Shown here piece after piece: positions 33,721 through 55,135 of a stretch of 64,000 nucleotides of DNA. Numbering within the stretch: position 1 is the first letter of the stretch; every line of letters starts with the position of its first letter. The notes under the pieces are model-generated. The model searched no databases. It was not told the origin of the DNA and saw only the letters and a list, made by a program, of their open reading frames with translations. A program made the translations under genes and the position numbers. This DNA is from an uncultured Candidatus Rokubacteria bacterium. Lineage in GTDB: Bacteria; Methylomirabilota; Methylomirabilia; Rokubacteriales; DASRDR01. The stretch covers positions 96,001-160,000 of the forward strand of contig CAVPSB010000031.1 of assembly GCA_963708025.1 (NCBI GenBank). The letters run 5' to 3'.

Positions 33721-33737
33721 ACCGCGAAGGCCGGCCG

Positions 33738-35355: not shown

Positions 35356-36991
35356 CTACGCGCCGTTGCTGAGCCGGTCCCGCCACAGGATGTGGTCCAG
35401 GCAGCGCTCGGCGAGGGCGCCGATGGTGAACGACGGATTGGCGAGGCCGGTGGACCCTTCGATCAGGGCGCCGTCCACCACGTACAGGCCCGGGTAGCGC
35501 TTCACCCGCCCGTCGAGATCGCAGGCCTTGCCCAGGACGGCGCCGCCGAGCGGGTGGGCGGACACGAACGGGTTGATCGAGAGCGTCAGCGATCCATTGC
35601 GCTGGTCCAGGACCGCGAGGGTCTGCTGCGCCGCGGCCAGGAAGTTGGCCAGCCGGGGATCGGCGGCGGGCCAGTTCAGGTCGACGGCATCGGCGGCGGG
35701 GTCGTAGGCGAAGGAGCCGATCGCGGGCGGGATGCCCAGGCTCGCGTAGTTGGCGAAGTGCGGCGGCGCGCCGACGGCCGAGAGCGCGGCGTTGATGTGG
35801 GGGGGCAGCACGAGCTCGACGAGGCTGGTGGGCCCGAACGGGTTGTCGAGGTCCTCCAGGATGAAGTGCCCGGCGGGGCCGCCCGTCCCCGCGTTGGTCG
35901 GCGGCAGGAGGCCCCGCGTCACGGGCAGGTCGCCGTTGGCCGCCCAGTGCTGGCCGACGTGGTCGTTCAGCGCCGGCAGCGCCCCCGTGGCCCGCGCGCG
36001 GACGAGCAGGCTCGTCGTGCCGACGGAGCCCGCGGCGAGGAACAGGTACTTGCACACCAGGCGCCGGGGCGCGCCCACGACGTCCCCGTCGTCGCTGAGG
36101 CGGAGCGTCGTCACCACGTAGCGGCCGCCGGGACCCCGCTCGATCGCGACCACCTGGTGCAGGGGCAGGATCTCGACGTGGCCCGTCGCCTCGGCCCGGG
36201 CGAGGTAGTTGCGATCGAGGCTGCGCTTGGCCCCGCTGTTGAGCCCGTAGAACGACTGCCCGGCGATGGCGGAGGGGACCCGCCGGCCGGCGATCTCGTC
36301 GCGCACGATGTCCCAGTCGACGGCCAGGTCGACCGGGCGCGTCGGGAATCCCGCCGTCCGGGCCTGGGCCAGGCTCACGCGGCTGGAGCGGTAGTACTCC
36401 GTGGCCAGGATGTCGTCGGGAATCGGCGCCGAGCGGATGATCCCCTTGACGCGCGGGTAGTACACGTCCTCCATCTCGTCGAAGTCGATCTGCCCGCGGG
36501 AAGAGGCGCTCGAAGAGCTCGCGGCGCGGCTTCACGATGATGGCGTTGAAGACGAGCGAGCCGCCGCCCACGCCCGCGCCGGCGCCGATGTAGATGCCGT
36601 TGCCCTCGGTGACGCCGTTGCCCTCGATGACCTCGAGGACGCCGACGTACCGGTCGATGGGCTTCTCGAGCTGGGGCAGGCCCAGGATCGCCTCGCCGGT
36701 GCGGTCGCGCAGCCAGTAGGCGCGCCCGTCGGGCTGCTCGAACGTCGCGAAGGTGTCGCCGTCGCGCCGGATCGGCCAGCGCCGGCCCCGCTCGAGCACG
36801 ACGGTGTCGATGCCGGCGTGCCCGAGCCTCAGCGCGGCGACCGCGCCGCCGAAGCCGCTGCCGATGACGACGGCGGGAACGAAGTCGGAGTGGCGTGCCC
36901 ACGCCCGGTGGCTGGAGCCGACGAGGCCGGCGCCGGCCGCCGCGAGAATTCCGCCTCGCAGGAACTGGCGCCTCGAGAGGTCCCTGGACAT
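35356..36991 (-). CDS. Tat-exported GMC oxidoreductase, cholesterol-oxidase-like (copy 1; frameshift near 36495)
   Basis: SRRQFL Tat motif; FVPAVVIGSGFGGAVAALRLG, GAGVGGGSLV, LAAGSVGT, AHPLGG, LYVVDG..NPSFTIGALAER. Confidence 0.85.
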
Positions 36992-37017
36992 GGCGTTTCC
37001 CCCTTGCTTCCAGTCGG

Positions 37018-37290
37018 TCATGGCCGCTGGGCGTCCTGGATGATCCCGTCGAGCAGCTCGGCGGGGTCGGAGATCAGCATGCCGTGTACCGCGTCCGGGC
37101 CGGACACCTCGACGAGCCCGGTTCGCCGGCGGTCAGGTACTCGTGGAGCAGGGCCTGCTCCTCCGGGCGGACGATGACGTCCTGCTCGAAGCCGACGACC
37201 CGCATGCGTGGTCCGGGCGTGGGGGCGAAGATCCTGGCCTCGATCGAGGGGTGGGCCAGAGGCGGCGCGCCGATCAGGGCAAGCGCGGGA
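37018..37290 (-). pseudogene. C-terminal gene remnant cut by the MITE-like element (copy 1)
   Basis: MRVVGFEQDVIVRPEEQALLHEYL...VSGPDAVHGMLISDP across frames (hydrolase-like tail); conserved in copy 2. Confidence 0.45.
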
Positions 37291-37486
37291 GGGGTCAGGC
37301 TTTGACTTCTTGACACTTCGAGGAACCCGAGGGGAGGTCGGCAGGCCGCCTGCCGGGCGGAGTGGTCCCGGTGCGGCGGCCGCGAGGGTCTCCTCACTGG
37401 TTCGCCCGGACATGGGGCACCACGCAAACTGGCCGCGTGCCCGTTCAGCGGCAGACGCCATTGTTCAGAAGTCAAAGCCTGACCCC
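37291..37486. mobile_element. MITE/REP-like element with perfect 20-bp terminal inverted repeats (copy 1)
   Basis: ggggtcaggctttgacttct (37291-37310) ... agaagtcaaagcctgacccc (37467-37486); no coding capacity. Confidence 0.7.
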
Positions 37487-37545
37487 ATCCTGCGCTCCGT
37501 GATCATCGGGTCCTCCTCCGGTTCCCAGCAGTCATCCCCGTGTCG

Positions 37546-38982
37546 CTACAGCGCGAACGGGAGTGACGCGGGCGGCGTGGCCTGGCCGGAGCCGTTGTCG
37601 CCCCAGCACGCCACGGTCCCGTCGCCCCGGATGCCGCACGTGTGAGTGCGCCCCGCGGAGACCTGGCTGAAGGGGCCGCCGGGCGGCGTGGCCTGGCCGG
37701 AGCCGTTGTCGCCCCAGCACGCCACGGTCCCGTCGCCCCGGATGCCGCACGTGTGCAAGCCCCCCGCGGAGACCTGGCTGAAGGGGCCGCCGGGCGGCGT
37801 GGCCGCGCCGAAGCCGTTGAAACCCCAGCACGCCACGGTCCCGTCGCCCTGGATGCCGCACGTGTGAAAGCCCCCCGCGGAGACCTGGCTGAAGGGGCCG
37901 CCGGGCGGCGTGGCCTGGCCGGAGCCGTTGACGCCCCAGCACGCCACGGTCCCGTCGCCCCGGATGCCGCACGTGTAATTGACCCCCGCGGAGACCTGGC
38001 TGAAGGGGCCGCCGGGCGGCGTGGCCTGGCCGGAGGCGTTGACGCCCCAGCACGCCACGGTCCCGTCGCCCCGGATGCCGCACGTGTGACTGACCCCCGC
38101 GGAGACCTGGCTGAAGGGGCCGCCGGGCGGCGTGGCCTGGCCGAAGCCGTTGACACCCCAGCACGCCACGGTCCCGTCGCCCCGGATGCCGCACGTGCTC
38201 AGGCCCCCCGCGGAGACCTGGCTGAAGGGGCCGCCGGGCGGCGTGGCCTGGCCGAAGAAGTTGTCGCCCCAGCACAGGACCCCGCCGAGGCGGGTCAGCC
38301 CGCAGGTATGACTGTTGCCCGCGTCCACTCCGGGCTGCGTCGCGAACGCAGCTCTCAGCACGACGCCACCCGGGCAGGTCAGCGTGACCAGGCCGAGGGT
38401 GCCGTCGAACGCGGCCGCGCAGCCGCCTCCCGAGCCCGGCGGTCCCTGCGGCCCCTGGGCGCCCGTGGCCCCGGTCTCGCCCTTCTCTCCCGGGATCCCC
38501 TGAACGCCCTGGAGCCCCGGCAGCCCCTGGATCCCCTGGATTCCCTGCGGCCCTGGCTCCCCCTGGACGCCCTGCATGCCTGGCGGCCCCTGAGGTCCTG
38601 GCTTTCCCTGGGGTCCCGGATCACCCGGCGGCCCCGGCTCGCCCCCGCCGCCGATCGCCACCTCGAACGGAAGCGCCGGGATCGGGAGCGCGCCGCCGCG
38701 GATCACCAGGAGTTGGTAGCTGGCCGGCTCGATGCCGACCGGCAGCGCGGCGACGATCTCCGTCGGCGAGTGGAGGAGCACCGTCAGCGGCACCCCGGCG
38801 AGCCGCACGCCGGGCGTCGCCGGCCCGAAGTTCACGCCCCAGACCGTGAGCCGCAGGCTCTCCAGGTCCGCGTCCACCCGCAGGATCAGCGGCACGGGCA
38901 GGTCGGCCCGCGCCGCGACCGCGAAGAGCAGCACCGTGATGATCCCGAACAGCCCCACCCCCAGCCGTCCCACCCTGGTCAT
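37546..38982 (-). CDS. Secreted protein: signal peptide, IPT/TIG-like domain, collagen triple helix, 7 RCC1/BLIP-II repeats (copy 1)
   Basis: LTVWGVNFG, (GXY)n GPQG.. run, repeats [22 protein letters not shown]. Confidence 0.88.
37571..38275 (-). repeat. 111-bp tandem repeat array (six near-identical units) in the RCC1 domain
   Basis: ggcggcgtggcctggccg at 37571 and 37682; unit recurs every 111 bp with minor variants. Confidence 0.92.
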
Positions 38983-38983
38983 G

Positions 38984-39253
38984 TCACGACCCTCCCTCGC
39001 CTCGAAGCCGCCTGAACATCGTCTCGATCACGGAGCCCAGCGTCTCCAGCCCCCGGAAGGTCTCCTTGCGCCCGGTCCGGACGGCCTCGACCACGCCCCG
39101 CAGCGCGCCGTCCGCGTCCTCGCTCACCGACACGACGAAGGAGCGGCGCACCCACGGCGCCTCGTCTCCGGCCGGCACCGGCCGCTCGGAGGGCGGGCTC
39201 CCGGTTGACCCGGAGGGCCCTGGGGAGCGCTCGCCTCGCCGTGTCGCTTTCAC
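38984..39253 (-). CDS. Small conserved hypothetical protein (copy 1; start uncertain)
   Basis: [30 protein letters not shown] is homologous to 51617..51814. Confidence 0.65.
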
Positions 39254-39357
39254 CGCGCCATCGTCCACCCGGCTCGTGAACGATGCGTTAAAGCCGCGCC
39301 GACACAGGCTTGTCATGGGCGGGTCCGTGGGGTAGGGTAGGGCCCGGTCGCCACCTC

Positions 39358-42300
39358 ATGGCGCGGCTCACGCTGACGCTGCTCGGGGGGTTCGAGGGCC
39401 GGCTCGACGAGAGCCATCCCCTCTCGCTGTCCGCCCGCAAGGCCTGGGCGCTCCTCGCCTACCTCGCCGTGCCGCCCGGCCGGGCGCACCCCCGGGACAA
39501 ACTGGCCGCGCTGCTCTGGGGCGGAGTTCCCGAGCCCCAGGCCCGGACGAGTCTCCGCCAGGCGCTCTTCGCTCTCCGGCGCGCCCTGGGCGAGGCCGCC
39601 CCCCTCCTGGTGATGGAAGGCGAGGGCGTGAGCCTGGCCGCGCCGGGCGTGGCGGTGGACGCGGTCCGCTTCGAGCAGGGGCTGGGCGCCGACGGTCGGG
39701 TCCCGCTCGAATCCGCGGTCGAGCTCTACCGGGGAGACTTGCTCGCCGGCCTGGCCGTGGACGAGCCGCCCTTCGAGGAGTGGCTCATGGCGCAGCGCGA
39801 GCGCCTGCGGGAGCTGGCGCTGGAAGGCCTCGCCCGTCTCCTGGCCCGCCAGCGGGCGGCCGGCGCCCTGGAGGCGGGGGTGACACCGCGATCCGCCTGC
39901 TCGCCATCGACCCGCTGCAGGAGGTGGGACACCGCACCCTCATGCGGCTCTATGCCGCGCTCGGCCGCCGTGGCGACGCGCTCCGCCAGTACCGGGAGTG
40001 CGTCGCCGTGCTCGCGCGCGAGCTAGAGGCGGAGCCCGAGGCAGAGACGCGACACCTGTACCAGGAGATCCTGCGCGAGAGGCTCGGCCGACCGTCCCGG
40101 GCCGACCGTGACCGGACGGCGGCCGACCCGCTCACGACGCCGCGTCGCGACCTTGCGCCACTGGCGTCGGGGCTCACGGAGGTGCCGCTCGTGGGCCGAG
40201 CGGCCGAGCTCGATCTTCTCCGGGCGGCGCTCGACACGGCCTGGGCGGGGCATCCGCGGCTCTTCCTCGTGCGGGGCGAGGCGGGGATCGGCAAGAGCCG
40301 GCTGATCGCCGAGGGGACCACCGGAGCGGTGCGCCGAGGGGGCCGGGTCCTCGTCGGCCAGTGCCACGAGAGCGAACAGGCCTTGCCGTTCGGCCCCTGG
40401 GTTGACCTCCTGCGAACGGCGCTGGCCGAGCTCGGCCCCCAGCTCGCCGGCCTGGCCCCCGCCTGGCGGGTCGAGCTGGCGCGGCTCCTCCCGGAGCTGA
40501 GCGACGCGGCGGCGTCGCCGCCCGAAGGTCCGGCCCACCACCGGCGCCTCTTCGAGGCCGTGGCGACATTCGCCCACACCCTGGCGCGGTCACGGCCCCT
40601 CGTCCTGGTCCTGGAGGACCTCCACTGGGCCGACGAGCCGAGCCTCCGGCTCGCGGTCTCCCTCTGCCGCCGTCTCGGAGACGCGCCCGTCCTCGTCGTG
40701 GCGAGCGTCCGCGAGGAAGACCTGGCCGACACGCCCGAGCGCGCCCACGTGCTCGACCTCGTCACGGAGGCGGCGGCGACGGTGACCCTCGGGCCGCTCT
40801 CCCGTCCCGATATCGCCCGCCTGGTCGCGGCGCTCGGCCGGCGCGGGGCCGACGTGATGACCACGAGCCAGCTGGCCGACCGCGTGTGGGCCGTGAGCGA
40901 GGGGCATCCGCTCATGGCCGTCGAGGCCACCCGGGCCTACGGGGCCGAGCCGGAGGCCCCCGGGGCCGGGCCGGAAGCCCCCGCGGCCAGGCTGGCGCTC
41001 CCCGAGCGCATCCACGACCTCGTCGTGCGGCGCCTTCGCCGGGTGAGCGACGCCGGCCGCGCCGTTCTCGCGGGGGCGGCGGTCGCCGGACGCCCGGTCG
41101 ACTTCGCGGTCCTGCAGCAGGCGGCCGGTCTCGCCGAGGCGGATGCCGCGGCGGCCGTCGAGGAGCTCGTGCGGCGCCGGCTCCTGCGCGAGGTCGGCGA
41201 GGGGCTCGTGCTCACGCACGACCGCGTGCGAGAGGTGGTGTACGGGGGGCTCCTCGCCCCGCGGCGGCGGCTGCTGCACCGGCGGGTGGCCGAGGCCCTC
41301 GAGGCCCAGGTCAGCGGGCGCACCGAGCCGCACGCGCTCGCGCTCGGCCGCCACTTCGAGGCAGCGGAAGCGTGGGACAAGGCCGCCCGGTACCTGCGCC
41401 AGGCGGGGCTCGACGCCTTCGCCCGGGGCGCCAGCCGCGAGGCGGCGCAGTCGCTCGAGCGGGCGCTCGGGGCGGCGGAGCGGCTTCCGGCCGGCCGGCC
41501 CCGCCAGGAGCAGCTGATCGATCTCCGGCTCGACCTGCGCCTGGCGCTGGCCCCGCTGGGCGAGGTCGAGCGCGTCCTCCGGTACCTGGAGGAGGCCCGC
41601 AGCCTCGCCACGACCCTGGGGGACGCGCGCCGGTCGGCGCGCGCCAGCGTGCTGATGAGCTACTGCTTCCACTGGATGGGCCAGCCGGCCCGCGGCCTCG
41701 AGTCGGCCCGCCAGGCCCTGGCGATCGCGTCCGACCTGGACGACCGGGTCCTCGCCATCGAGGCCAGCTACCACCTCGGCCAGACGGCCATCCCCCTCGG
41801 GCGCTTCCGCGACGCGCTCGAGGCGCAGCAGAAGGTCCTCGCGCTCCTCGAAGGCGCCGGGGGCGATGTCCGCCTGAGTCTCCCCTACCGGCCCGCCGTC
41901 GCGTGCCGGATCTACATCGGCCTCTGCCTCGGCTTCCTGGGGGAGTTCGCGGACGCCGGCGTGTCCCGGCAGGAGGGGCTCCGGCTGGCGGAATCGGTGG
42001 ACCACGTGAACACCCGCGCGTTCGCGCTCCAGGGTGCCGGGTGGCTCGCCCTGATCCAGGGCGAGGCGCTCGAGGCGATCCCGCCGCTCGAGCGGGCCCT
42101 CGAGATCTGCACCCGGTTCGACATCGTCCCGACGTGGCCGGTGGCCGCCACGCTGCTCGGCTGGGCGTACGCCCTGACCGGACGACCGCCGGAGGGCATC
42201 GCGCTCGTCGAGGAAGCCGAGCAGCGGAGCGCCCGACTCCGGCTGGAGCTCGTCCACGGCGGAGCCCTGGCCGCACTGTCCGAGGCCTATCTCCTGGGCG

Positions 42301-42654
42301 ACCGCCGGGCCGACGCGCAGGCGGCCAGCCAGCGCGCCCTCGAGGCGGCGCGGGCTCACCAGCAGCGGTGGCAGGAGGCCGAAGCGCTCAGGGTCCGGGG
42401 CGACATCGTGGCGGCCGGAGCGGCCGGGCTCGAGGCGGATTCCTGGTACGGGGAGGCCCTGGCGCTGGCCTCGACGCTCGGCATGGCGCCCCTCGTGGCG
42501 CGGTGCCGGTTCGCGCGCGCGATGCTGCTCCGCCGGGAGGGGCACGAGGAAGACGCGCAGGCAGAGATGGAGGCCGCACGCCAGTCGTTCCGACGCATGG
42601 GCATGAAGACCTGGCTGGAGCGGACGGAGGCGACCCTCATCGGGGGAGCGCTGA
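39358..42654 (+). CDS. SARP/BTAD - AAA(STAND) ATPase - TPR transcriptional regulator (copy 1; frameshift near 39880)
   Basis: LTLLGGF, ALLAYLA, RDKLAALLW, LYRGDLL, DPLQE..HR.LMRLY, GEAGIGKS Walker A, LEDLHWAD Walker B, THDRVREV. Confidence 0.88.
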
Positions 42655-42656
42655 TC

Positions 42657-44285
42657 GTGACGGGACCCGTCCCCATCGACCGCCGGAGCTGGCTGAGGCT
42701 CGCCGGAGCGGCCGCCGCGGCTTGTTCGGTCGGCGCCACCGCGAGCCCGACGCCGAAGCGCGGCGGCGTGTTCCGCCTCCGCGGCGAGGACCCGACGACC
42801 GGCTTCGACCCGCATCGGACCGTCTCCTTCCGGACGTTGACCACGCTGTCCCTGACGCACAGCCGGCTGGTGAAGGTGAAGGCCGGGACGGGCGTCGCCC
42901 CCGGGACCGTGCCGCTGGAGCCGGACCTGGCCGAGTCGTGGACGCGACCCGACGACAGGACCTATCTCTTCCGGCTCCGCCGCGGCGCCCGCTGGCATCC
43001 GAAGCCCCCGGTGAACGGCCGGGAAGTGACCGCGGAGGACGTCAAGTACACCTACGATCGCTTCCGCGCGATCACCGGGAATCCTGCCCGGAGCCTGCTG
43101 GATCCGGTGGAGAAGATCGAGGCGCTCGACCGGTACACGGTCCGGTTCGTCCTCACGGAGCCCTTCGCGTGGTTCCTGGACGTGCTCGCGTCCACCTCGA
43201 TGTGGATCGTGCCGAAGGAGGCCGTCGACCACTGGGGCGACCTCCGGCGCGCGGAGGCGTGCGTCGGCACCGGACCCTGGATGCTCGAGCGCTACGAGCC
43301 CGGCGTCCGGCTCACCTTCGCGCGGAACCCGCATTACTTCCTCGCGGACCTCCCGTACGCCGACGCCGTCGAGGTGACCGTGGACGCCGATCCCGCGTCC
43401 AGGCTGGCGGCATGGCTGGCGGGGCAGTACGACTTCGCGCCCGAATACGACATGGTCGTGCGTCGCGTCGATCTCGACCTCGTCCAGCGCCGGAAGCCGG
43501 GGCTCCAGACCGCGGAGTTCGTCTGGCTCGTGGGCGCGCTGGGCGCCCTTCGCCTGGATCGAGAGCCGTTCAAGGACCTGCGCGTCCGGCAGGCGCTGGC
43601 CCTCGCCGGCAACTGGAGGGAGGGGCTCGACGCCAACGCGTTCGCCCAGGGCCACGGTGTTCCCAACCCCGCGGTTCCGGCAGCCTTCCGGGAGTGGTCC
43701 ATTCCCATCGACCAGCTTCCCGCCGCCGGCCGTCGGGTCTACGAGCAGAGCCTCCCCGAGGCCCGGCGGCTTCTGGTCGAGGCCGGCTACCCGAACGGGC
43801 TGAAGATCCCGGTCGAGACCACGGCCGGCTACGGCCCCGACTACATGGACCTGGTGCAGGTCCTGCTGAAGAACTGGAAGGCGGCGGGTGTCGAGGCCGA
43901 CCTGCGGCTGAAGGAGTACGGCGCGTTCCTGGCGAGCGCCGTCTTCGGGAAATTCGACGCGCTGGCCCTCAGCCTGCTCGGCGCCTGGACGGAGCCCGAC
44001 AGCTATCTCTACCGGCTCCACATGCCGGGTCAGCCGACGAACGCGAGCGGTGTCGACGACCCGAGGCTCAGCGAGATGATCCGCCTTCAGCGCCGCGCCT
44101 TCGACCCGGCGCGGCGCCGCCAGATCCTGTACGACATCCAGCGCTACCTCTCCGAGCGGGTGTACTACCTCTACGACGCCTCGATCAGCGTCGTGGCCGC
44201 CTGGGAGCCATACGTCAGGAACTTCGCCCCGAACTTCGGCCACGACTACGGGGGGCGGCTGATGGTCGCGTGGCTCGACCGATAG
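42657..44285 (+). CDS. ABC transporter substrate-binding protein, family 5 (peptide/nickel), Tat signal; in frame with the upstream regulator
   Basis: DRRSWLRL Tat-like leader, PKRGG, PDLAESW, TAEDVKYT, VGTGPW, LL.EAGYPNG. Confidence 0.88.
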   Translation: MTGPVPIDRRSWLRLAGAAAAACSVGATASPTPKRGGVFRLRGEDPTTGFDPHRTVSFRTLTTLSLTHSRLVKVKAGTGVAPGTVPLEPDLAESWTRPDDRTYLFRLRRGARWHPKPPVNGREVTAEDVKYTYDRFRAITGNPARSLLDPVEKIEALDRYTVRFVLTEPFAWFLDVLASTSMWIVPKEAVDHWGDLRRAEACVGTGPWMLERYEPGVRLTFARNPHYFLADLPYADAVEVTVDADPASRLAAWLAGQYDFAPEYDMVVRRVDLDLVQRRKPGLQTAEFVWLVGALGALRLDREPFKDLRVRQALALAGNWREGLDANAFAQGHGVPNPAVPAAFREWSIPIDQLPAAGRRVYEQSLPEARRLLVEAGYPNGLKIPVETTAGYGPDYMDLVQVLLKNWKAAGVEADLRLKEYGAFLASAVFGKFDALALSLLGAWTEPDSYLYRLHMPGQPTNASGVDDPRLSEMIRLQRRAFDPARRRQILYDIQRYLSERVYYLYDASISVVAAWEPYVRNFAPNFGHDYGGRLMVAWLDR

Positions 44286-44430
44286 GCCGCTGGCGATAGC
44301 CGGCCGCTGGTCCATCCCGGCCGCCAGCCGTCGAGGATCGCGAAGCGTCGCCGTCCCGAGGCATGGTCCCGGGACGCCCCGCGGCCCCTGCCTGAGCACT
44401 TCTCGCCTACCTTGCCGTTGCCGCCCGGCC

Positions 44431-44993
44431 GGGCGCTTCCCTAGACGCTCGAGATCTGCCGGGCCCTGTGGTGCTGCGACGGTGTCGGCTTCGCGGGCCG
44501 GCACTTCAAAAAGCACGACGTCACCATGGAGCCGAAGCCGCACCGCCCCGGCGGGCCGCCCATCTGGATCGGCGGCAGCGGCCCCACCGCGCTCCGCGAG
44601 GCCGCGCGCTTCGACGCCTGGTCCCCCACCGGCCCCGGCGTCGAGTACTTCGCCGAGCACTTCCCCGGCGTCCAGGCCGCCGCCCGCGCCGCCGGCCGCC
44701 CTGCCGACGCCGTGACCGGCGCGGCCTACGTCACGCTCGCCCTCGACCCCAGCCCCGCGGCCGCCGAGCAGCGGCTTCACGCCTTCCTGGAGACCTACTA
44801 CGCGGTGCCGGCACGCGCGATCATGGCCCGCCAGGCCACCTACGCCGGGCCGATCGAGGGCTGCGCCGAGTGGCTCCAGCGCTGGATCGACACCGGCTGC
44901 AGCCACTTCTGCCTCCGCTTTGCCGGCGGCGACCAGCTCGCCCAGGTGGACGAGACGGCCTCCCGGCTCCTCCCGCGGCTGCGCTCGCGCTAA
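44431..44993 (+). pseudogene. 3' partial duplicate of the LLM oxidoreductase (33158-33712)
   Basis: Near-identical DNA and protein (MEPKPHR..GPPIWIGG...RLLPRLR); 5' half absent. Confidence 0.85.
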
Positions 44994-45489: not shown

Positions 45490-45507
45490 GCAAGTCCGGT
45501 GGGACTA

Positions 45508-45982: not shown

Positions 45983-46609
45983 CTACCCCTGGCCCTCGGC
46001 TGGCGTTCGCGCCCTCTCCACGAGCCGCACCAGTACCTCGTAGGGCTGCGCGCCCACGACGCCCCAGCGGCCGGCGACGAAGGTCGGCACGCCGCTGATC
46101 CCGAGCTCGCGCGACAGCGCCCAGTCGGCATCGATGGCTGCCTCGAACGTCCGCCGCTCCAGCACCTCGCGCGCGGCCTCGACCGGGAGGCCGACGCGCT
46201 CGGCGATCTCCAGCAGCACCGCGGGCTTCGAGATGTCGCGGGCCTCCACGAAGTAGGCGCGGAAGAGTGCCTCGTGGATGGCCTCGCCGCCCGGCTGCGT
46301 GTCGGCCCACTTGCCCAGCTCCTGCGCCAGCCGGCTGTTGTACGTCATCGTGCGCTCGCCGTAGGGAAGGTCCTCGGCGTCCATGCGCGCCTTCATCTGG
46401 GCGTGCATGGCCTGCCGGTCCAGGTTGCGTCCCGCGAAGAGGTCGTCCAGGGAGCGGCCTTCCGCCGGGGTGTCCGGGTGCAGCGGGAAGTGCACCCACT
46501 CGACCTTCACGCCGTGCTCGGCCTTGAGCCTCTCAATACGCACGGTACTGAGATAGCACCAGGGTCAGACGTAGTCGGTGAAGACCTTCAGCGTGACCGG
46601 CTCGCTCAT
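45983..46609 (-). CDS. DsbA/FrnE-family oxidoreductase, probable selenoprotein (UPWC; UGA at 46565-46567)
   Basis: GAGGAGG RBS + ATG 46609; MSEPVTLKVFTDYV-TGA-PWCY in frame with FPLHPDTP...GISGVPTF. Confidence 0.85.
46531..46553 (-). promoter_or_regulatory. Putative bacterial SECIS hairpin
   Basis: UCUCAGUAC-CGUGC-GUAUUGAGA, 9-bp stem with a G-containing loop 20 nt after the UGA. Confidence 0.7.
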
Positions 46610-46635
46610 GAGGCCTCCTCTGGGGCCGGAGAGGA

Positions 46636-47985
46636 TCAGCCCAGGAGCAGCTCGCACACCTCGAGCCACGCCTGGGTGGTCAGCGCGAGCGACTCCACGT
46701 CCACGCGCTCGTCGTTCCCGTGGAACCGCCCGCCCATCGCCTCGGCGGTCAGGGCCCGTGAGAAGAGGCCGAAGCCGTAGGCGATCGCGCCCCGATCGCG
46801 GAAGTAGGGCGCATCGGTGAAGCCGACGATCATCTTCGGCAGGAGGCGGGCGCCCGGGTAGTGCGCGTCCACCACCCGGCCCAGCACGTCCCACAGCGGG
46901 GTACCGGTGGGCGACACCGAGGCCGGCTTGGAGAAGAGCCGCTCGACCTCGACCTCCTCGGCCAGGCCGCCGAGGGCCTTGTCGAGGTGCCGGCGCACCT
47001 CGTCCTCGCTGTCGCCGGGGACGGTGCGGATGTCCACCTCCACGTCGACCGTGTCCGGGATCACGTTGGTCTTGACCCCGCCGTGGCAGACGTTCGGCGA
47101 GAGCGTCGTGTGGGTGGCCGACCACGCGAGCCGGGCCAGGCGCGGGTCGAGCCCGGCGATCGCCTCGTCGACGCGGGAGGGGTCGGCCAGGGCGGCCTTC
47201 GTGGCCGGGTCGAGGTGGAGCGTGTCGACGAAGGCCCGCCACAGCTCGTCGACATAGGGCGCCGGGCGGTAGTCGGCCAGGCGGCTCACCACCCGGGCGG
47301 CCTTCACCAGCGCGTTGTTCGCGCCGTACGGCATCGAGCCGTGGCCGGGCGTGCCCTTCACCCGGAGCCGCCGCCAGGCGACGCCCTTCTCGCCGACGTG
47401 CACGGTGACGGCGAGCTCGCCGGTCGCGCCGCGGCTCACCGTTCCCCCGTTCTCGGTGAGGCAGTAGTCGGCCCGGAGAGCGTCCCAGTGCCGCTCGCAC
47501 ACGTAGCCGGCCCCCAGCGTGCCGCCGGCCTCCTCGTCGGCGCAGGCGAGGTAGACGAGCGAGCCGCGCGGCCGCCAGCCGGCGGGCCGGCGGGCCAGGG
47601 CGCGGAGCGCGACGGCCTGGGAGGCGGTGATGTTGAGCATGTCCACCGCGCCGCGGCCCCACACCTCGCCGTCGACCAGCTCGCCGCCGAACGGATCGCG
47701 GGTCCAGGCCTTCGGGTTCACCGGCACGACATCGGTGTGGCCCATCAGGCACAGCGTGGGCGCCGTGGGGTCGCTCCCCTCGATCCGGGCGACCAGGCTC
47801 CCGCGGCCGGGGGCGTGAGGCGGCTGGTACACCTCGATGTCGAGGCCGCTGCCTTCCAGGTAGCTCCTCAGGGTGTCGCTGTTGCGCGACTCCTGGCCCG
47901 ACGGGAGGGTGCCGTCGTTGACACACTGGTTGCGAATCAGCTGCTGGAGCAACTCGACGGTCTGGCCGGTCAATGCGTCGTCCAT
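46636..47985 (-). CDS. M20/M25/M40 metallo-hydrolase (acylaminoacyl peptidase-like)
   Basis: GHTDVVP, WGRGAVDM, ADEEAGG, HGSMP, GFTDA, HGNDER. Confidence 0.92.
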   Translation of the reverse strand: MDDALTGQTVELLQQLIRNQCVNDGTLPSGQESRNSDTLRSYLEGSGLDIEVYQPPHAPGRGSLVARIEGSDPTAPTLCLMGHTDVVPVNPKAWTRDPFGGELVDGEVWGRGAVDMLNITASQAVALRALARRPAGWRPRGSLVYLACADEEAGGTLGAGYVCERHWDALRADYCLTENGGTVSRGATGELAVTVHVGEKGVAWRRLRVKGTPGHGSMPYGANNALVKAARVVSRLADYRPAPYVDELWRAFVDTLHLDPATKAALADPSRVDEAIAGLDPRLARLAWSATHTTLSPNVCHGGVKTNVIPDTVDVEVDIRTVPGDSEDEVRRHLDKALGGLAEEVEVERLFSKPASVSPTGTPLWDVLGRVVDAHYPGARLLPKMIVGFTDAPYFRDRGAIAYGFGLFSRALTAEAMGGRFHGNDERVDVESLALTTQAWLEVCELLLG

Positions 47986-48197
47986 GACGGTATCCTAGCC
48001 AGCGGCGGCCGCGCTGTCGAGGGCGGGGTCAGGCCCGCTCGAAGAGCGCCTGGACCGAGACGATGCGGTGCTCCTCGCGATTCCCGGGTGGCGCGGTGGC
48101 ACGTGGGCTCCGCGTCCATCGCGCCATCCTAACGCGGATCGTCAGCCAGGCCACCCTCGCCGCCGCAGGCCTTCCCTCCCCACCGGAGCGCCGGGAG

Positions 48198-49834
48198 CTA
48201 CGCGCCGTTGCTCAGCCGGTCCCGCCCCAGGATGTGATCCATGCAGCGCTCGGCGAGCGCGCCGATGGTGAACGACGGATTGGCGAGGCCGGTGGACCCT
48301 TCGATCAGGGCGCCGTCCACCACGTACAGGCCGGGGTAGCGCTTCACCCGCCCGTCGAGATCGCAGGCCTTGCCCAGGACGGCGCCGCCGAGCGGGTGCG
48401 CGGACACGAACGGGTTGATCGAGAGCGTCAGCGATCCATTGCGCGCGTCCAGGACCGCGAGGGTCCGCTGCGCCGCGGCCAGGAAGTTCGCCAGCCGGGG
48501 ATCGGCGGCGGGCCAGTTCAGGTCGACGGCATCGGCGGCGGGGTCGTAGGCGAACGAGCCGATCGCGGGCGGGATGCCCAGGCTCGCGTAGTTGGCGAAG
48601 TGCGGCGGCGCGCCGACGGCCGAGAGCGCGGCGTTGATGTGCGGGGGCAGCACGAGCTCGACGAGGCTGGTGGGCCCGAACGGGTTGTCGAGGTCCTCCA
48701 GGATGAAGTGCCCGGCGGGGCCGCCCGTCCCCGCGTTGGTCGGCGGCAGGAGGCCCCGCGTCACGGGCAGGTCGCCGTTGGCCGCCCAGTGCTGTCCGAC
48801 GTGGTCGTTCAGCGCCGGCAGCGCCCCCGTGGCCCGCGCGCGGACGAGCAGGCTCGACGTGCCGACGGAGCCCGCGGCGAGGAACAGGTACTTGCACACC
48901 AGGCGCCGGGGCGCGCCCACGACGTCCCCGTCGTCGCTGAGCCGGAGCGTCGTCACCACGTAGCGGCCGCCGTGACCCCGCTCGATCGCGACCACGCTGG
49001 TGCAGGGGCAGGATCTCGACGTGGCCGGTCGCCTCGGCCCGGGCGAGGTAGTTGCGATCGAGGCTGCGCTTGGCCCCGCTGTTGAGCCCGTAGAACGACT
49101 GCCCGGCGATGGCGGAGGGGATCCGCCGGCCGGCGATCTCGTCGCGCACGATGTCCCAGTCGACGGCCAGGTCGACCGGGCGCGTCGGGAATCCCGCCGT
49201 CCGGGCCTGGTCCAGGCTCACCCGGCTGGAGCGGTAGTACTCCGTCGCCAGGATGTCGTCGGGAATGGGCGCCGAGCGAATGATCCCCTTGACGCGCGGG
49301 TAGTACACGTCCTCCATCTCGTCGAAGTCGATCGCCCGCGGGAAGAGCGCGCTCGAAGAGCTCGCGCCGCGGCTTCACGATGATGGCGTTGAAGACGAGC
49401 GAGCCGCCGCCCACGCCCGCGCCGGCGCCGACGTAGATGCCGTTGCCTTCGGTGACGCCGTTGCCCTCGATGACCTCGAGGACGCCGACGTACCGGTCGA
49501 TGGGCTTCACGAGCTGGGGCAGGCCCAGGATCGCCTCGCCGGTGCGGTCGCGCAGCCAGTAGGCGCGCCCGTCGGGCTGCTCGAACGTCGCGAAGGTGTC
49601 GCCGTCGCGCCGGATCGGCCAGCGCCGGCCCCGCTCGAGCACGACGGTGTCGATGCCGGCGTGCCCGAGCCTCAGCGCGGCGACCGCGCCGCCGAACCCG
49701 CTGCCGATGACGACGGCGGGAACGAAGTCGGAGTGGCGTGCCCACGCCCGGTGGCTGGAGCCGACGAGGCCGGCGCCGGCCGCCGCGAGAATTCCGCCTC
49801 GCAGGAACTGGCGCCTCGAGAGGTCCCTGGACAT
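48198..49834 (-). CDS. Tat-exported cholesterol-oxidase-like GMC oxidoreductase (copy 2; frameshifts near 49340 and 48995)
   Basis: Near-identical to copy 1 at DNA level. Confidence 0.85.
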
Positions 49835-49860
49835 GGCGTGTCCCCCTTGCTTCCCGTCGG

Positions 49861-50135
49861 TCATGGCCGATGGGCGTCCTCGATGATCCCGTCGAGCAGC
49901 TCGGCGGGGTCGGAGATCAGCATGCCGTGCACCGCGTCCGGCCCGGACACCTCGACGAGCCCGGTTCGCCGGCGCCGTCAGGTACTCGTAGAGCAGGGCC
50001 TGCTCCTCGGGGCGGATGATGACGTCCTGCTCGAAGCCGACGACCCGCAGCGTGGTCCGGGCGTGAGGGGCGAAGATCCGGGCCTCGATCGACGGGCGGG
50101 CCAGAGGCGGCGCGCCGACCAGGGCAAGCGCGGGA
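49861..50135 (-). pseudogene. C-terminal gene remnant (copy 2)
   Basis: Homologous to 37018-37290. Confidence 0.45.
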
Positions 50136-50333
50136 GGGGTCAGGCTTTGACTTCTTGACACTTCGAGGAACCCGAGGGGAGGTCGGCAGGCCGCCTGCCG
50201 GGCGGAGGTGGTCCCGGTGCGGCGGCCGCGAGGGTCTCCTCACTGGCTCGCCCCGGACATGCGGCACCACGCAAACTGGCCGCGTGCCCGTTCAGCGGCA
50301 GACGCCATTGGTCAGAAGTCAAAGCCTGACCCC
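50136..50333. mobile_element. MITE/REP-like element with 20-bp terminal inverted repeats (copy 2)
   Basis: ggggtcaggctttgacttct ... agaagtcaaagcctgacccc. Confidence 0.7.
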
Positions 50334-50349
50334 ATCCTGCGGCCAGTCG

Positions 50350-51557
50350 CTACAGCGCGAATGGGAGTGACGCGGGGGGCGTGGCCTGGCCGAAGCCGTT
50401 GAAGCCCCAGCACGCCACCGTCCCGTCGCCCCGGAGGCCGCACGTGTGAAAGGCCCCTGCGGAGACCTGGCTGAAGGGGCCGCCGGGCGGCGTGGCCTGG
50501 CCGTTGCCGTTGACGCCCCAGCACGCCACCGTCCCGTCGCCCTGGAGGCCGCACGTGTGATTGCCCCCTGCGGAGACCTGGCTGAAGGGGCCGCCGGGCG
50601 GCGTGGCCTGGCCGGACCCGTTGTTGCCCCAGCACGCCACCGTCCCGTCGCCCTGGAGGCCGCACGTGTGACTGCCCCCTGGGGAGACCTGGCTGAAGGG
50701 GCCGCCGGGCGGCGTGGCCTGGCCGGAGAAGTTGGCGCCCCAGCACGCCACCGTCCCGTCGCCCTGGATGCCGCACGTGTGAGAGAACCCCGCGGAGACC
50801 TGGCTGAAGGGGCCGCCGGGCGGCGTGGCCTGGCCGGACCCGTTGTTGCCCCAGCACAGGACCCGGCCGAGGCGGGTCAGCCCGCAGGTGAAATCGCCGC
50901 CCGCGCTCACTCCGGGCTGCGTCGCGAACGCAGCTCTCAGCACGACGCCACCCGGGCAGGTCAGCGTGACCAGGCCGAGCGTGCCGTCGAACGCGGCCGT
51001 GCAGCCGCCTCCCGAGCCCGGCGGTCCCTGCGGCCCCTGGGCGCCCGTGGCCCCGGTCTCGCCCTTGTCGCCCTTATCCCCCTTGTCGCCTCTGTCCCCC
51101 TTCTCGCCTTGCATCCCCTGAGGACCCTGGGGTCCCGACGGCCCTTGAATTCCCGGGATTCCCTGCGGTCCCGGCTGGCCCTGGGGTCCCTGGGGGCCCT
51201 GCGGGCCCACGGCGCCGTCTCCGCTGCCGATCGCCACCTCGAAGGGGAGCGCCGGGATGGGGAGTGGGCCCCCCCGGATCACCAGGAGCTGGTAGGTTGA
51301 CGGCTCGATGTCGTGCGGCAGCAGGGCGACGATCTGCGTCGGGGAGTGGAAGAGCACCGGGAGTGGCACGCCGGCGAGCTTCACCACCGGCGTCGCCGTC
51401 CCGAAGCTCGTGCCCAGATCGTCAGCCGCGAGCTCTCCAGGTCGGCATCCGCTCGCAGGATGAATGGCACGGGCAGGTCCGCCCGCGCCCCGACCGCGAC
51501 GACCAGCACCGCGATGATTCCGACCAGCACCACGCCCAGCCGTCCGCCTCTCGTCAT
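50350..51557 (-). CDS. Secreted IPT-like/collagen/RCC1-repeat protein, 5 repeats (copy 2; frameshift near 51410)
   Basis: [17 protein letters not shown] leader homologous to copy 1; collagen GXY run; RCC1 repeats. Confidence 0.85.
50376..50857 (-). repeat. 111-bp tandem repeat array (four units)
   Basis: Same unit as 37571-38275. Confidence 0.9.
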
Positions 51558-51616
51558 GTCACGCCCTCCTCTTCTTCGTGTCTCGGCCTGACGCAATCGA
51601 GACCACGCCGACGCCG

Positions 51617-51814
51617 TCAGGAGCCCGGCGCCGGCTCGGCCTCCCCGCGCGCCAGCATCGCGGCGAGGAGCCCTCCGACGTCCTCCAGCCCGTCCACCTT
51701 GGCCTTCTCGCCGGTCCGGACCCGCTCGACCACCCCGGTGACCCGCCCGAGCCCGTCCCGGTCCAGCCGGACGATGAAGACCGCTCGGTGAAGCCCCACG
51801 CCCTCGTCCGCCAT
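51617..51814 (-). CDS. Small conserved hypothetical protein (copy 2)
   Basis: AVFIVRL..D..G.VTGVVERVRTGEK..V.GLE.VG..L..M. Confidence 0.7.
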   Translation of the reverse strand: MADEGVGLHRAVFIVRLDRDGLGRVTGVVERVRTGEKAKVDGLEDVGGLLAAMLARGEAEPAPGS

Positions 51815-51921
51815 GACGTGCCCACCATGGCCGGGGGGGCGTTAGCAAACCGTCTGCGGCGGCGTTAGTGGCTGGTAATGTGGCGGGACATCGTGCTAAA
51901 GTCCGCCCACTGGCGGCGGCC

Positions 51922-54900
51922 ATGAGCCGGCTCAGCTTGAGGCTCTTCGGCGGCTTCGAGGTGGAGGGGGACCTCGGACGGCACCGCGTTGTCCCGACCC
52001 GGAAGGCCCAGGCCCTCCTCGCCTACCTGGCGCTCACGCCCGGCCAGACCCATCCGCGGGACAAGCTGGCCGCGCTCCTCTGGGCCGACACGCCCCCGGG
52101 GCCGGCCCGTACCGCGCTCCGCCAGACCCTCTTCGTCCTCCGGAAGGCGCTCGGCGCCGCCGACGGCGCCCCGCTCGTCATGACGGGCGACGCCGTCGCG
52201 CTGCCGTCGGAGGCCGTGCAGACGGACGTCGGCGGCGTTCGAGCGGGCGGTCGCCGAGGGGACGCCGGCCGCGCTCGAGCACGCGGTCGGGCTCTACCGG
52301 GGCGACCTGTTGGCCGGGCTCGGCGTCGCCGCGCCGATCTTCGAGGACTGGCTCATGAGCGAGCGGGAGCGGCTCCGCGAGCTGGCCCTCGAGGCCCTCG
52401 CGCGGCTCCTCGCCCACCAGCGGACGCGCCGGCGCGACCGCGCCCGCGATGCAGACGGCGCTCCGGCTCCTCGCCCTCGACCCGCTGCAGGAGGCCGTGC
52501 ACCGGACGCTGATGCGCCTCTACGCGCAGCTCGGGCGGCGCGACGCCGCGCTCCGCCAGTACCAGGAGTGCGTCGGAGATCCTCCGCCGCGAGCTGGCGG
52601 TCGAGCCCGAGGCCGAGACCCAGGCGCTGTACCGGGAGATCCTCCGGCAGCGGCCCGTGCCAGACGGCGGCGGGACGCCGGTCGCGGCCGGGCCGTCCGA
52701 GGCGCCGCTCGTCGGTCGCGACGGCGAGGTGACGCGGCTCCACGAGGCGCTGGCCGCGGCGTGGGCCGGACACGGTCGCGTCCTCGCCGTCCTCGGCGAG
52801 GCCGGGATCGGGCAAGAGCCGGCTCGCTGGCCGAGCTCGCCGCCGAGGCCGGACGCCGGGGCGGCTCGATCCTGCTCGGCCGCGCCTACGAGAGCGAGCA
52901 GATCCTGCCGTTCGGGCCCTGGGTCGACTGCGCTCCGGCACGCCGGCGTCCTGATCGACGCGAGGTCCCTGGAGGGTCTCGAGGCGCGTCTGGCTGCGCG
53001 GAGCTGGCGCGCCTGTTCCCGGAGCTGGCGCAGGCCGACCCGCCAGCGGCGGCCGACCCCGGAGACCAGCTCGCGCCTGTTCGAGGCCCTCGCCCGGCTG
53101 CTCCGGCATCTCGCCGTCGCGCCGGCCGCTCGTCGTCCTGCTGGAGGACGTGCCACTGGGCGGACGACATGAGCCTGCGCTTCCTCGCGTTCCTCGGCCG
53201 CCGCCTGCACGCGGCGCCCATCCTGGTGGCGATCAGCGTCCGCGAGGAGGAGGTGATCGACAGCCCGCTGCTTCGCCGCGACGCTCGACGAGCTCGCGGC
53301 CGAGGGGCGGCTGGTCCGCCTGACGCTGCCGCATCGCTCGACCATGACGACACGCTGGCGCTCGTCCGTCTGCTCGGGCGCGCGGACAGCCGGGCGGTCG
53401 CCGTGACGCAGCGGGGCGAGCAGGTCTGGGCGGCCAGCGCCGGCAATCCGTTCATCGTGGTCGAGACGATGCGCGCGATCGGTGACGGGTCCGAGGTGGA
53501 GTCCCTGGCCAGCCTGCCGGTCCCGACGCGGGTCCGGGACATGATCGCCCGCCGCCTCGACCGCCTCCAGCCGCTCGGACGGCAGCTCGCCAGCGTGGCC
53601 GCCGTCATCGGCCGCGAGTTCGACTTCGCCTTGCTCCAGGAGGCCGCGGGTCTCGATCCCCGCGACGCGGCCGAGGGCCTCGAGGAGCTGGTCCGCCGGC
53701 GCGTGGTGCACGGGGTCGGCGACCGCTTCGACTTCACGCACGACCGGATCCGGGAGGTGGCGTCTGGCCGGCTCTTGCTCCCGCGCCGGCGCGCGCTGCA
53801 TGGCGCCGTGGCGGCCGCGATGGAAGCGCTGCACGCGGGGAGCCTCGAGCCCCACTACGCGGCGCTGGCCTTCCATTATCGGGAAGGCGAGACATGGCCG
53901 AAAGCGCTCGAGTATCTCCAGCGGGCGGGCGCCCAGGCCATGGCCCGCGGCGCCTACCGGGAAGCGGCGACCTGCCTCGAACAGGCGCTCACCGCCGCCG
54001 AGCGCCTGGCCGGCCCGGAGGCAGCGCAATCGGCCCTGGAGCTGCGCCTCCGCCTGCGGAACGCGCTCCTGCCTCTCGGAGACCAGGCCCGGATGCTCGA
54101 CAACCTCCGGGAGGCGGAAGCCCTCGCCGAGCGGCTGGGCGATCAGCGCCGGCTCGGCTGGATCCTTTCGTACTCGGCTCTGGAGGTCTGGCGGCTCGGC
54201 GATCGGAGCGGGCGATCGGTCTCGCCGGGCGGGTCCTCGCCATCGCCGGGACTCTCGACGACGCCGGCCTGCGCATCATCGCGGGGATTCGACTGGGGCA
54301 GGCCTTTCACGGCCTCGGTCGGTACGCCGAGGCGATCGACGCGCTGCGGACGACGACCGCCGAGCTACACGGCGACCGGCGACGCGAGCAGTACGGTCTG
54401 TCGGCCCCACCCTCGGTGATCGCCCGGACCTGGCTCGCCTGGTGCCTGGCGGAGCGCGGGGAGTTCGCCGAGGGTCAGCGTCACGCCGAGGAGGGGCTCG
54501 CCATCGGCGAGGAGGTGAACCAGCCCTACCCGCTCGTGGCGGCGTGCTTCGGGCTCGGCCTCCTCCACCTCCGGCGCGGCAACGTCAACGATGCGATCCG
54601 CCTGCTCGAGCGGGGCATGGCGCTCGGTCGAGTCCGGGAGATCCCGGTCTTCTCCGCCTGGACCGCATCGTCGCTCGCCCTGGCCTACCTGCTGGCCGGC
54701 CAGCCCGAGCGAGGCCGGCCTCTCCTGGAGCCGCCCGTGGAGTCCGACATCCTGGCGAAGGCGGCCCAGCAGGCGTTCCCGTTCCTGTGGCTGGGCGAGG
54801 CGCATCTCCTGGCCGGTCGCCTCGACGCGGCCGCCGAGCGCGCCCGCCAGGCGCTCGGCCTCGCCCGCGCCCGGCGCGACCGCGGACACGAGGCGTACGC

Positions 54901-55135
54901 CCTGCGTCTCCTGGCCGAGGTCGCGGCTCGTCGCGAGGCCCCGGACGCCGTCGAGGCCGAGAGTCTGCATCGCCGCGCCATCGCGACGGCGGAGGAGCTG
55001 GGGATGCGGCCGCTCGCGGCCCACTGCCGGGCCGGTCTCGGCCGACTCTACCATCGAATGGGCCGCGCTGACGCTGGCGCGGCCGAAGCCGCCGCCGCGA
55101 CGGCGGCCTACCGGTCGATGGGGATGAACATCTGA
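51922..55135 (+). CDS. SARP/BTAD - AAA(STAND) - TPR regulator (copy 2; many frameshifts)
   Basis: LRLFGGF, RDKLAALLW, DPLQEAVHRTLMRLY, GEAGIG, HWADD, GNPFIVVE, THDRIREV, LGMRPL.AHC across frames. Confidence 0.82.

Follow-up and report, generated by a model that had tools for sequence, protein, structure and literature searches.

What is the unit of function at a locus that carries the same genes twice, and which of these genes belong together? The question is raised by a 64-kb stretch of DNA (G000:C31:96001-160000; below, the window means this whole stretch, with positions counted from its first letter) in a metagenome-assembled genome (MAG) of an uncultured Rokubacteria bacterium, whose assembly comprises 8.17 Mb in 49 contigs with 71–72% G+C. 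An original prediction, made from the letters alone, had described here a gene order that occurs twice (35356-42654 and 48198-55135). Self-BLAST and a repeat search find the duplication at these coordinates, and Pfam confirms the architecture proposed for both copies: a regulator gene stands divergent from a small gene, which is followed by a gene for a collagen/RCC1 protein and by an oxidase gene. Comparison with other loci indicates that the conserved unit is an AfsR-type regulator (winged helix-turn-helix, BTAD, AAA_16, TPR) encoded divergently from a protein of about 57 amino acids (aa), and that the cargo behind the small gene varies. On balance, the window probably holds two neighbouring cassettes of one family from a Rokubacteria/Methylomirabilota order, which share recently copied cargo. 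The parts of the two copies are the following (ORF, open reading frame; Tat, twin-arginine translocation; FAD, flavin adenine dinucleotide).

35356-37021, minus strand: oxidase 1, a Tat-signal and FAD-binding, ChoA-like GMC oxidoreductase of ~554 aa; frame break at 36491 (Pfam, PDB homology)
37022-37545, no strand: spacer between RCC1 gene and oxidase, 96% conserved in copy 2, with an inverted repeat inside
37546-38982, minus strand: collagen/RCC1 protein 1, intact, 478 aa (Pfam)
38984-39151, minus strand: small protein 1, 55 aa from a GTG; ORF open to an ATG at 39316; stop 1 nt before the RCC1 start (tblastn, 52 bits)
39152-39357, no strand: divergent intergenic region 1; a single TAACG box, the second box degenerate
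39358-42654, plus strand: regulator 1, winged helix-turn-helix, BTAD, AAA_16 and TPR; frame broken within the G5 run 39876-39880; reads into the next gene without a stop (Pfam)
48198-49864, minus strand: oxidase 2; frame breaks at 48996 and 49348 (tblastn, comparison with copy 1)
50350-51557, minus strand: collagen/RCC1 protein 2; frame break near 51413 in a C run (Pfam)
51617-51814, minus strand: small protein 2, canonical, 65 aa; 69% identity with its counterpart at locus L010 (sequence comparison)
51815-51921, no strand: divergent intergenic region 2; on the small-gene strand a pair of CTAACGCC boxes with 23-nt spacing, the first at 51867
51922-55135, plus strand: regulator 2, orthologue of the L010 regulator; breaks at ~52228, 52428, 52575, 52820 and 54300 (Pfam, tblastn)

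Six cassette loci are present in the source genome: the two window copies, C31a (C31:2.3-2.7 kb; locus L001, G000 C31:1-9000), C16 (L004, C16:406000-419000), C14 (L003) and C32; other L numbers denote foreign loci. Paralogues and small proteins were searched with tblastn, and domains and families with Pfam, NCBIfam and PADLOC. The regulators have the domains of a large SARP, an OmpR-type winged helix followed by BTAD, with a central STAND/AAA_16 ATPase and a C-terminal TPR part. AfsR has the same architecture (OmpR-type DNA-binding domain, BTAD, STAND ATPase, TPR; PMC11301090). The regulators here thus share their domain order with AfsR of the AfsR/afsS system of Streptomyces coelicolor and with the other large SARPs PimR, PolY and SanG. 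Regulator 1 matches Trans_reg_C at E 4.3e-5 (23.9 bits, just below the cut-off of 26.2), BTAD at 6.1e-14, AAA_16 at 5.8e-32 and TPR_12 at 3.2e-11; for regulator 2 the values are 9.9e-6 (Trans_reg_C), 2.2e-6 (BTAD) and 1.7e-13 (TPR_12). The intact paralogues score 27.0–27.1 bits (C31a and C16), 21.3 bits (C14) and 16.6 bits (C32) with Trans_reg_C and reach ~1e-26 with BTAD. The P-loop G..GIGK is invariant in the eight regulators compared. Unlike these shared features, descent separates the cassette regulator from AfsR: it is not an orthologue and belongs to a different phylum, the intact C32 paralogue scoring 52.8 bits with the AfsR profile NF053617 of NCBIfam against a cut-off of 1430.

The small gene is tied to this regulator. 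In all six loci of the genome tblastn with small protein 1 finds a homologue beside the regulator, and the N-terminus of a divergent regulator lies 69–252 nt upstream in 16 of 22 foreign small-gene loci (L008 and L017 are the same DNA). A search for BTAD-STAND genes next to the small-protein family, proposed with the original prediction as a check, thus came out in its favour. The small protein has the consensus MTFIVRLxRDEAGRLTGIVERVRTGEKERF..., with 12 residues invariant in 26 sequences; small proteins 1 and 2 are 43% identical. It is confidently predicted to form a beta-beta-beta-alpha fold of three strands and a helix (predicted local distance difference test, pLDDT, ~95 in the core). No Pfam, NCBIfam or PADLOC family matches the small protein, and PADLOC gave no match for seven cassette proteins. 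Searches with the small-protein model reached a best E of 0.18 in Foldseek and a best Z of 4.2 against 48,161 chains in VIA-align 2; neither match is convincing, which does not imply a new fold. In the ESM Atlas the matches are solely 'hypothetical protein' clusters (0.87–0.88).

A profile search retrieved 694 cluster representatives of the small protein at E ≤ 1e-3, and the 150 listed are 47–173 aa long. In a phylum sample of 201 genomes (the source genome and 200 others) the small protein is found in 33, all from two families of one order, and the source genome has most copies (eight). Among contigs from one genome per species there are 11 foreign loci, all in MAGs, nine of them titled Rokubacteria/Rokuibacteriota or Methylomirabilota. 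The Streptomyces polyene frame in which the locus had been placed does not fit these relatives, nor does it fit the window, where Pfam finds no polyketide genes. This cassette of uncultured soil Rokubacteria is widespread and previously undescribed as far as the literature searched goes, a non-exhaustive search having found a description of neither the cassette nor the small protein.

What follows the small gene differs from locus to locus. The cargo may be a DUF5122 propeller with RTX and CARDB, an FG-GAP protein, a beta-helix protein, SDR with DUF4394, a 1239-aa Ig/PKD/cadherin protein, DsrE with flavocytochrome-c sulfide dehydrogenase, or AraC with a sigma factor. By ORF coordinates, four of the six cassettes in the genome have a small-gene stop that overlaps or adjoins the start codon of the following gene, and the small gene and its cargo are probably co-transcribed. 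The regulators vary mainly at their C-termini: in the eight compared, residues 1–680 are 36–66% identical and the TPR parts 14–42%. For the two window regulators homology ends near residue 700, which agrees with the proposal that they have different sensor (TPR) parts. The further claim, that two sensors control near-identical effectors, is not supported by the assembly, in which frameshifts interrupt both regulators.

A pair of cassettes outside the window shows the reverse of the mosaic within it. At 98.15% identity, C31a and C16 are nearly the same from the small gene through the intergenic region to ~2050 nt into the regulator gene (L001 2297-4729, L004 4204-6636), whereas their TPR parts share 27% aa identity and their cargo is DUF5122-RTX-CARDB in one and FG-GAP in the other. 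Such a mosaic points to probable swapping of sensor and cargo around a homogenised core. There is no sign of co-variation between TPR sensor and cargo type in the comparison of C31a and L007, which share the DUF5122-RTX-CARDB cargo with TPR parts 25.5% identical. For residues 1–900 of the intact C32 regulator (all but the last 210 TPR residues; 8-row alignment) paired with the small protein (26-row alignment), complex prediction gave a score of 0.05, the mark being 0.32, and returned no answer, which is no evidence either way.

Some additional features of the cassette loci are worth recording. In the C31a subfamily (L001 ~2500-2610; also L004, L008 and L017) there is an upstream ORF of ~33 codons (MVTQQELEALRDRYPDLPW) with a good AGGAGG site, which by eye ends in an ATGA overlap with the small-gene start. 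Second, weaker small-protein-like domains lie slightly downstream at C14:398250-398384 and C16:415203-415355, one of them at the C-terminus of a 123-aa ORF. The C14 locus encodes, besides its SARP-AAA_16-TPR cassette, an adenylate/guanylate cyclase-AAA_16-TPR protein of 1083 aa (L003 1286-4537).

How might the regulator act on the small gene? Upstream of the small genes there are direct T[AG]ACG boxes, spaced 23–24 or 11–12 nt and always on the small-gene strand. Box pairs at 11, 12, 23 or 24 nt occur in 10 of 16 upstream regions, in 0.37% of random genome 230-mers and in 0 of 16 on the opposite strand; this enrichment is descriptive, the motif having been derived from the same sequences as those counted. 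Cassette 2 has a perfect CTAACGCC pair, and the whole window contains only three box pairs, one of which is the promoter of small gene 2. At seven small genes (L006, the identical L008/L017, L019, L020 and the near-identical C31a/C16) a TA-hexamer follows the proximal box by 7–8 nt. In PMC11301090, AfsR at afsS is described on direct repeats that lie on one DNA face, overlap the −35 element and stand ~8 nt upstream of the −10; heptamer repeats in helical phase are the rule for SARPs (PMC3367932). The geometry of putative box and TA-hexamer here matches that of AfsR/afsS. As in that system, the small gene adjoins the regulator gene and helical-spaced direct repeats come just before a −10-like hexamer. 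Differences are that the small gene is divergent here, not downstream as in the afsS arrangement, and that the box is T[AG]ACG in place of the CGGCAAG heptamers of PimR (PMC3367932). A promoter and terminator consensus scan of 34300-39900 returned 0 promoters and one terminator-like site, which is the chance level; Rfam (E ≤ 0.1) gave nothing in 32000-56000, and the window has no tRNA genes.

In the mechanism that we propose, the regulator would, once its TPR sensor is triggered, attach to the T[AG]ACG repeats, whose spacing is one or two helical turns. The putative binding site lies just upstream of the small-gene −10, the same geometry as for AfsR at afsS, and binding would switch on the small protein and the cargo. 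In the window the cargo would be a membrane- or surface-bound collagen-stalk protein with an RCC1-type propeller end and, beyond a 524-nt spacer, a Tat-exported ChoA-like flavoprotein oxidase. It is plausible that the cassettes regulate the RCC1 gene. The small protein itself might act with the regulator or with the transcription machinery in an AfsR/AfsS-like way, an idea we hold tentatively; its likeness to AfsS is one of analogy, and the protein here is a predicted folded domain outside any assigned family. A wider proposal, likewise doubtful at present, is an AfsR/AfsS-like two-component unit outside Actinobacteria, made up of the small protein and the divergently encoded SARP-STAND regulator. 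It would be a portable sense-and-respond cassette with a fast-diversifying TPR part, a homogenised core (SARP head, ATPase, small protein, operator) and swappable cargo. In such a unit the small protein would be an obligatory cofactor, a feedback element or a general transcription factor and not a passenger. Unlike AfsR/afsS and the other large SARPs, the cassette is multi-copy (eight small-protein matches in the genome) and carries variable, often secreted cargo, not antibiotic genes. In RRNPP pairs, too, a small ORF adjoins the gene of a transcription factor with TPRs, and an Opp-type binding protein gene follows regulator 1, but the resemblance is no more than an analogy. Unlike in RRNPP, the small protein lacks a signal peptide and is a conserved domain predicted to fold, while the regulator combines a SARP head with a STAND ATPase.

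How did the same cargo come to lie beside two cassettes? By self-comparison, 35355-38053 pairs with 48197-50857 (94.6% over 2706 columns), 37791-38995 with 50373-51569 (85.1%) and, in the regulator part, 39434-41496 with 51998-54015 (66.6%). A sliding column-wise comparison reproduces the gradient of identity that had been claimed, with oxidase, spacer and RCC1 region close and small gene, collagen N-terminus and regulators diverged. Specifically, the oxidase and most of the spacer are 97.5–99.5% identical, the 111-nt RCC1 repeats 90–94%, the collagen/N-terminal part 70–81% and the small gene 57–73%. The duplication extends further to the left than first described, into monooxygenase and racemase fragments: 33156-33710 and 44430-44983 (luciferase-like monooxygenase fragment) are 91.4% identical, and 34113-34450 and 45508-45846 (racemase fragment) 96.2%. 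A nucleotidyltransferase ORF, DsbA and an M20 peptidase are specific to copy 2, a 161-aa ORF and a small-gene remnant to copy 1. These flanking features are as follows.

32773-33720, plus strand: luciferase-like monooxygenase, intact; last two thirds repeated at 44430-44983 (Pfam Bac_luciferase 5.6e-61)
33700-34427, plus strand: Asp/Glu/hydantoin racemase family gene; 3' part repeated at 45508-45846 (Pfam Asp_Glu_race 1.1e-26; frame by plot of third-position G+C, GC3)
34612-35097, minus strand: 161-aa ORF with an N-terminal hydrophobic, signal-like segment; no significant Pfam match (translation)
35230-35290, minus strand: small-protein gene remnant of the copy-2 type, just past the oxidase-1 stop (42 nt 90% identical to 51735-51776; translation contains IARLDRDRPGRVTG)
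42660-44285, plus strand: SBP_bac_5 (Opp/Dpp/Nik-type) solute-binding protein with RR/lipobox signal, in frame with regulator 1 (Pfam, NCBIfam)
44430-44983, plus strand: monooxygenase fragment, the start of the second copy (repeat search)
45139-45489, plus strand: nucleotidyltransferase-domain ORF, copy 2 only (Pfam)
45508-45846, plus strand: racemase fragment (repeat search, Pfam)
45983-47985, minus strand: DsbA-like (45983-46543) and M20 peptidase (46636-47985) genes, copy 2 only (Pfam)

The spacer had been called a miniature inverted-repeat transposable element (MITE). It does contain a 25-nt inverted repeat (37291-37315 / 37462-37486, 92%), but BLASTN finds no further copy of the spacer in the 49 contigs of the genome, and the label is not supported. 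Two other direct repeats occur in the window, at 3239-3335 / 3685-3783 (91%, 99 nt) and at 16505-16842 / 19015-19352 (70%, 343 nt).

The two window regulators are 66.6% identical to each other and 66.6–67.0% identical to five other loci of the genome. Because their mutual identity is no higher than that to other paralogues, they are old paralogues. The nearest counterparts of regulator 2 and small protein 2 lie in the cassette of a foreign Rokubacteria MAG (L010); on this likeness, pair 2 is an evident orthologue of the L010 pair and pair 1 a different paralogue. Since the cargo and left flank are only 2–9% diverged while the cassette cores are old, the segmental copy would be recent, and the comparison points to a right edge that fades inside the collagen/RCC1 gene. 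Such a copy would have put monooxygenase-racemase-oxidase-RCC1 DNA beside two cassette cores that are older and differ from each other. Two cassettes already in place may have recombined to give this arrangement, or one core may have been replaced later. In copy 1, the remnant and the adjoining 161-aa ORF may be the stump of a third cassette.

Several observations weigh against the reading of two regulated cassettes with shared cargo. Six of the 22 foreign small genes have no divergent regulator in the flanking DNA examined. Small protein 1 is the most diverged member in the genome, deviating at two of the 12 invariant positions; a single clear box is seen in cassette 1, and the counts of boxes elsewhere are, as said, descriptive. 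No box pair precedes either oxidase in the window; because the oxidase gene lies 524 nt past the RCC1 gene and lacks such a pair, its membership in the regulated unit is unproven. The source is a MAG with 8.18% estimated contamination. Public reads add little, the best run containing 0.20 of the sampled words. For 42500-50300, four public runs gave short low-depth contig pieces (those listed span at most 640 nt of the window), of which four from run X1 differ from the window by 0–2 letters; no piece from the four runs and no independent contig bridges the junction at 44286-44430, and the sites of the indels are likewise unsettled by them. Moreover, most module genes are not single open frames as assembled: breaks affect RCC1 gene 2 and the oxidase and regulator genes of either copy, and a system so frameshifted may be dead.

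One alternative is that the locus is decaying, with the duplicated genes being pseudogenes in a recombination-prone region and nothing functional left. We consider this unlikely, though it is the least improbable of the alternatives. Frame breaks were located by GC3 frame plots, tblastn and direct reading of the letters, and there are at least 10 of them in ~14 kb. Most are single-base insertions outside homopolymers, which would suit decay, although two lie in G or C runs; within the two modules, RCC1 gene 1 and the two small genes alone are free of breaks. Regulator 1 has lost its stop: there is none at 42654, and the frame 39780-44285 continues into the SBP_bac_5 gene, which has an RR/lipobox signal of its own (IDRRSWLRLAGAAAAAC), so that the fusion reflects either a lost stop or another indel. 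The truncated monooxygenase and racemase fragments and the small-gene remnant would also suit decay, as would broken genes elsewhere in the window (an MFS transporter split between two frames, 55776-56691, and a phosphoenolpyruvate mutase gene reduced to the first 134 profile positions at 59536-60003), although the split MFS gene can equally be read against long-standing decay of the modules. Other results speak against such long-standing decay. When read through, each oxidase has 554 codons without a stop, and the two copies differ in 18 synonymous and 12 non-synonymous codons, a ratio of non-synonymous to synonymous differences per site (pN/pS) of ~0.25. Regulator 2 retains 60–88% aa identity to its L010 orthologue inside each frame segment, and the four paralogous regulators of the genome are intact (1091–1177 aa). 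Because pN/pS between the oxidase copies is 0.25, the frameshifts are probably recent or artefactual. The breaks would thus be either very recent inactivation or consensus errors, a choice that these data do not decide; we lean towards errors.

A second alternative is that of the original prediction, a dedicated, ligand-inducible secreted system against sterol-containing eukaryotes, in which the oxidase would act on membrane sterols, the collagen/RCC1 protein would bind the target and two sensors would control the same effectors. We regard it as quite improbable. In both copies Pfam finds a Tat-signal/FAD N-terminus and GMC_oxred_C (8.4e-7); the Tat signal, which would serve export, scores 16.9 bits with TIGR01409 (cut-off 16.7) and 20 bits with Pfam TAT_signal. 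Among solved structures at E ≤ 1e-3, every relative of the C-terminal part is a cholesterol oxidase (12 of 12, best E 2.3e-54); for the N-terminal part the same is true of the best 12 of 14 (best E 1.6e-27). Along their whole length the two parts can be aligned to the cholesterol oxidases of Streptomyces and Brevibacterium, and they meet at ChoA residue ~137. The likeness to cholesterol oxidase first noted from the translation is therefore real, the nearest solved relatives being of class I (the GMC-fold enzymes ChoA/ChoB, PDB 1B4V and 1COY), and the oxidase shares with these and with PimE/SgnE the FAD N-terminus, the GMC C-terminal domain and an export signal. A His (in HPLGG) and an Asn (in NP) align to identical ChoA residues, which we take to be the catalytic His447 and Asn485 in ChoA numbering; the Glu361 region is gapped.

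The match to the enzyme family nevertheless stops short of function. The NCBIfam cholesterol-oxidase equivalog NF058674, which has a cut-off of 850, gives 68.4 bits for the C-terminal part and 33.7 bits for the N-terminal part, and the sequence shares little identity with ChoA. Unlike ChoA/ChoB, the oxidase falls in a separate, highly conserved metagenomic clade: of 1002 homologues at E ≤ 1e-10, the 120 matches listed are 78–90% identical, mostly ~541 aa long and from metagenomes, more than 100 of them being intact, and some sources label such homologues 'cholesterol oxidase' or 'GMC oxidoreductase'. Unlike PimE/SgnE, it has no polyene cluster around it and is out of frame in both copies as assembled. 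Linkage of the oxidase to regulator or RCC1 genes elsewhere is largely missing, an outcome that the original prediction had itself named as refuting. RCC1 genes are near the oxidase homologue in four of 39 metagenome loci (L036, L038, L039 and L041, which are similar contigs of one lineage with another orientation), and a small-protein homologue in one (L054). Pfam on 23 neighbour ORFs from eight of the 39 loci finds BTAD proteins in two, L037 and L054, and otherwise unrelated genes. In none of the 200 other genomes sampled from the phylum was the oxidase found. As the oxidase mostly lies among unrelated genes and the cassette core carries different cargo elsewhere, targeting of sterol-containing organisms remains speculation, even though the unrelated TPR parts of the two regulators would fit two sensors. 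In locus L054 (1-5891) the gene after the oxidase homologue, on the same strand, is a 1065-aa ORF that has AAA_16 N-terminal and BTAD C-terminal, the reverse of the SARP order; next come the small-protein homologue (4846-5037) and a GntR gene. The Streptomyces precedent of PimR and PimE does not help either: in the pimaricin system PimR acts on pimM and pimE is a target of PimM (PMC3367932), and thus the precedent is indirect and gives no direct SARP-oxidase pair.

In the relatives searched, the collagen/RCC1 protein does not tie the oxidase to the cassette either. Protein 1 has a signal/transmembrane segment, a weak TIG-like domain, 26 G-X-Y triplets and seven RCC1_2 blades of 37 aa (the 111-nt repeats); protein 2 has 24 triplets and five blades. 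RCC1_2 is matched in seven stretches in copy 1 (3e-54) and five in copy 2, and counts of the CWG/TCG motif are also seven and five. The IPT label given earlier is not upheld by Pfam, where TIG stays below threshold (residues 1-107 of protein 1; E 0.045, 14.2 bits compared to 20.9), and a single-sequence AlphaFold model of the RCC1 part has a pLDDT of 38.3. With Scl1/Scl2, Lcl and RCC1/BLIP-II proteins it shares G-X-Y triplets (24–26), Pfam Collagen and RCC1_2 matches and an N-terminal signal or anchor. Its blades are short (37 aa). Unlike Scl/Lcl, it has no LPXTG: the C-terminus reads ...ASLPFAL, and the NCBIfam adhesin profiles give 28–34 bits where the cut-offs are 325–500. Relatives occur in 24 of the 201 phylum genomes, mostly with the N-terminal-collagen and RCC1 parts in separate proteins, and in nine such loci of other genomes the ~1.5-kb flanks contain no match to the small protein, the regulator or the oxidase.

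Finally, that the second copy is a chimera or strain-variant mis-join in an organism with one module, as the contamination of the MAG, the many single-base indels and the unbridged junction might suggest, is very improbable, since the copies differ beyond strain variation (seven and five RCC1 blades, 26 and 24 collagen triplets), DsbA, M20 and nucleotidyltransferase genes are inserted, regulators and small genes come from different paralogue subfamilies, both copies lie within one 398-kb contig and the truncated flank fragments fit a real segmental duplication.

We therefore return to the reading of two neighbouring cassettes with shared, recently copied cargo. The meaningful unit at this locus is the SARP-STAND/small-protein cassette; the oxidase and the RCC1 protein represent just one of its many cargoes, and there is no warrant for assuming that they act on sterols. 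Should the cassette work in the way we infer, large SARPs would no longer be mainly a matter of Streptomyces antibiotic clusters but would also form a modular sensor family in an uncultured soil phylum. An unannotated small-protein family of 694 clusters would gain a genomic context and a testable partner, and the loci compared here would show how cassettes exchange sensors and cargo.

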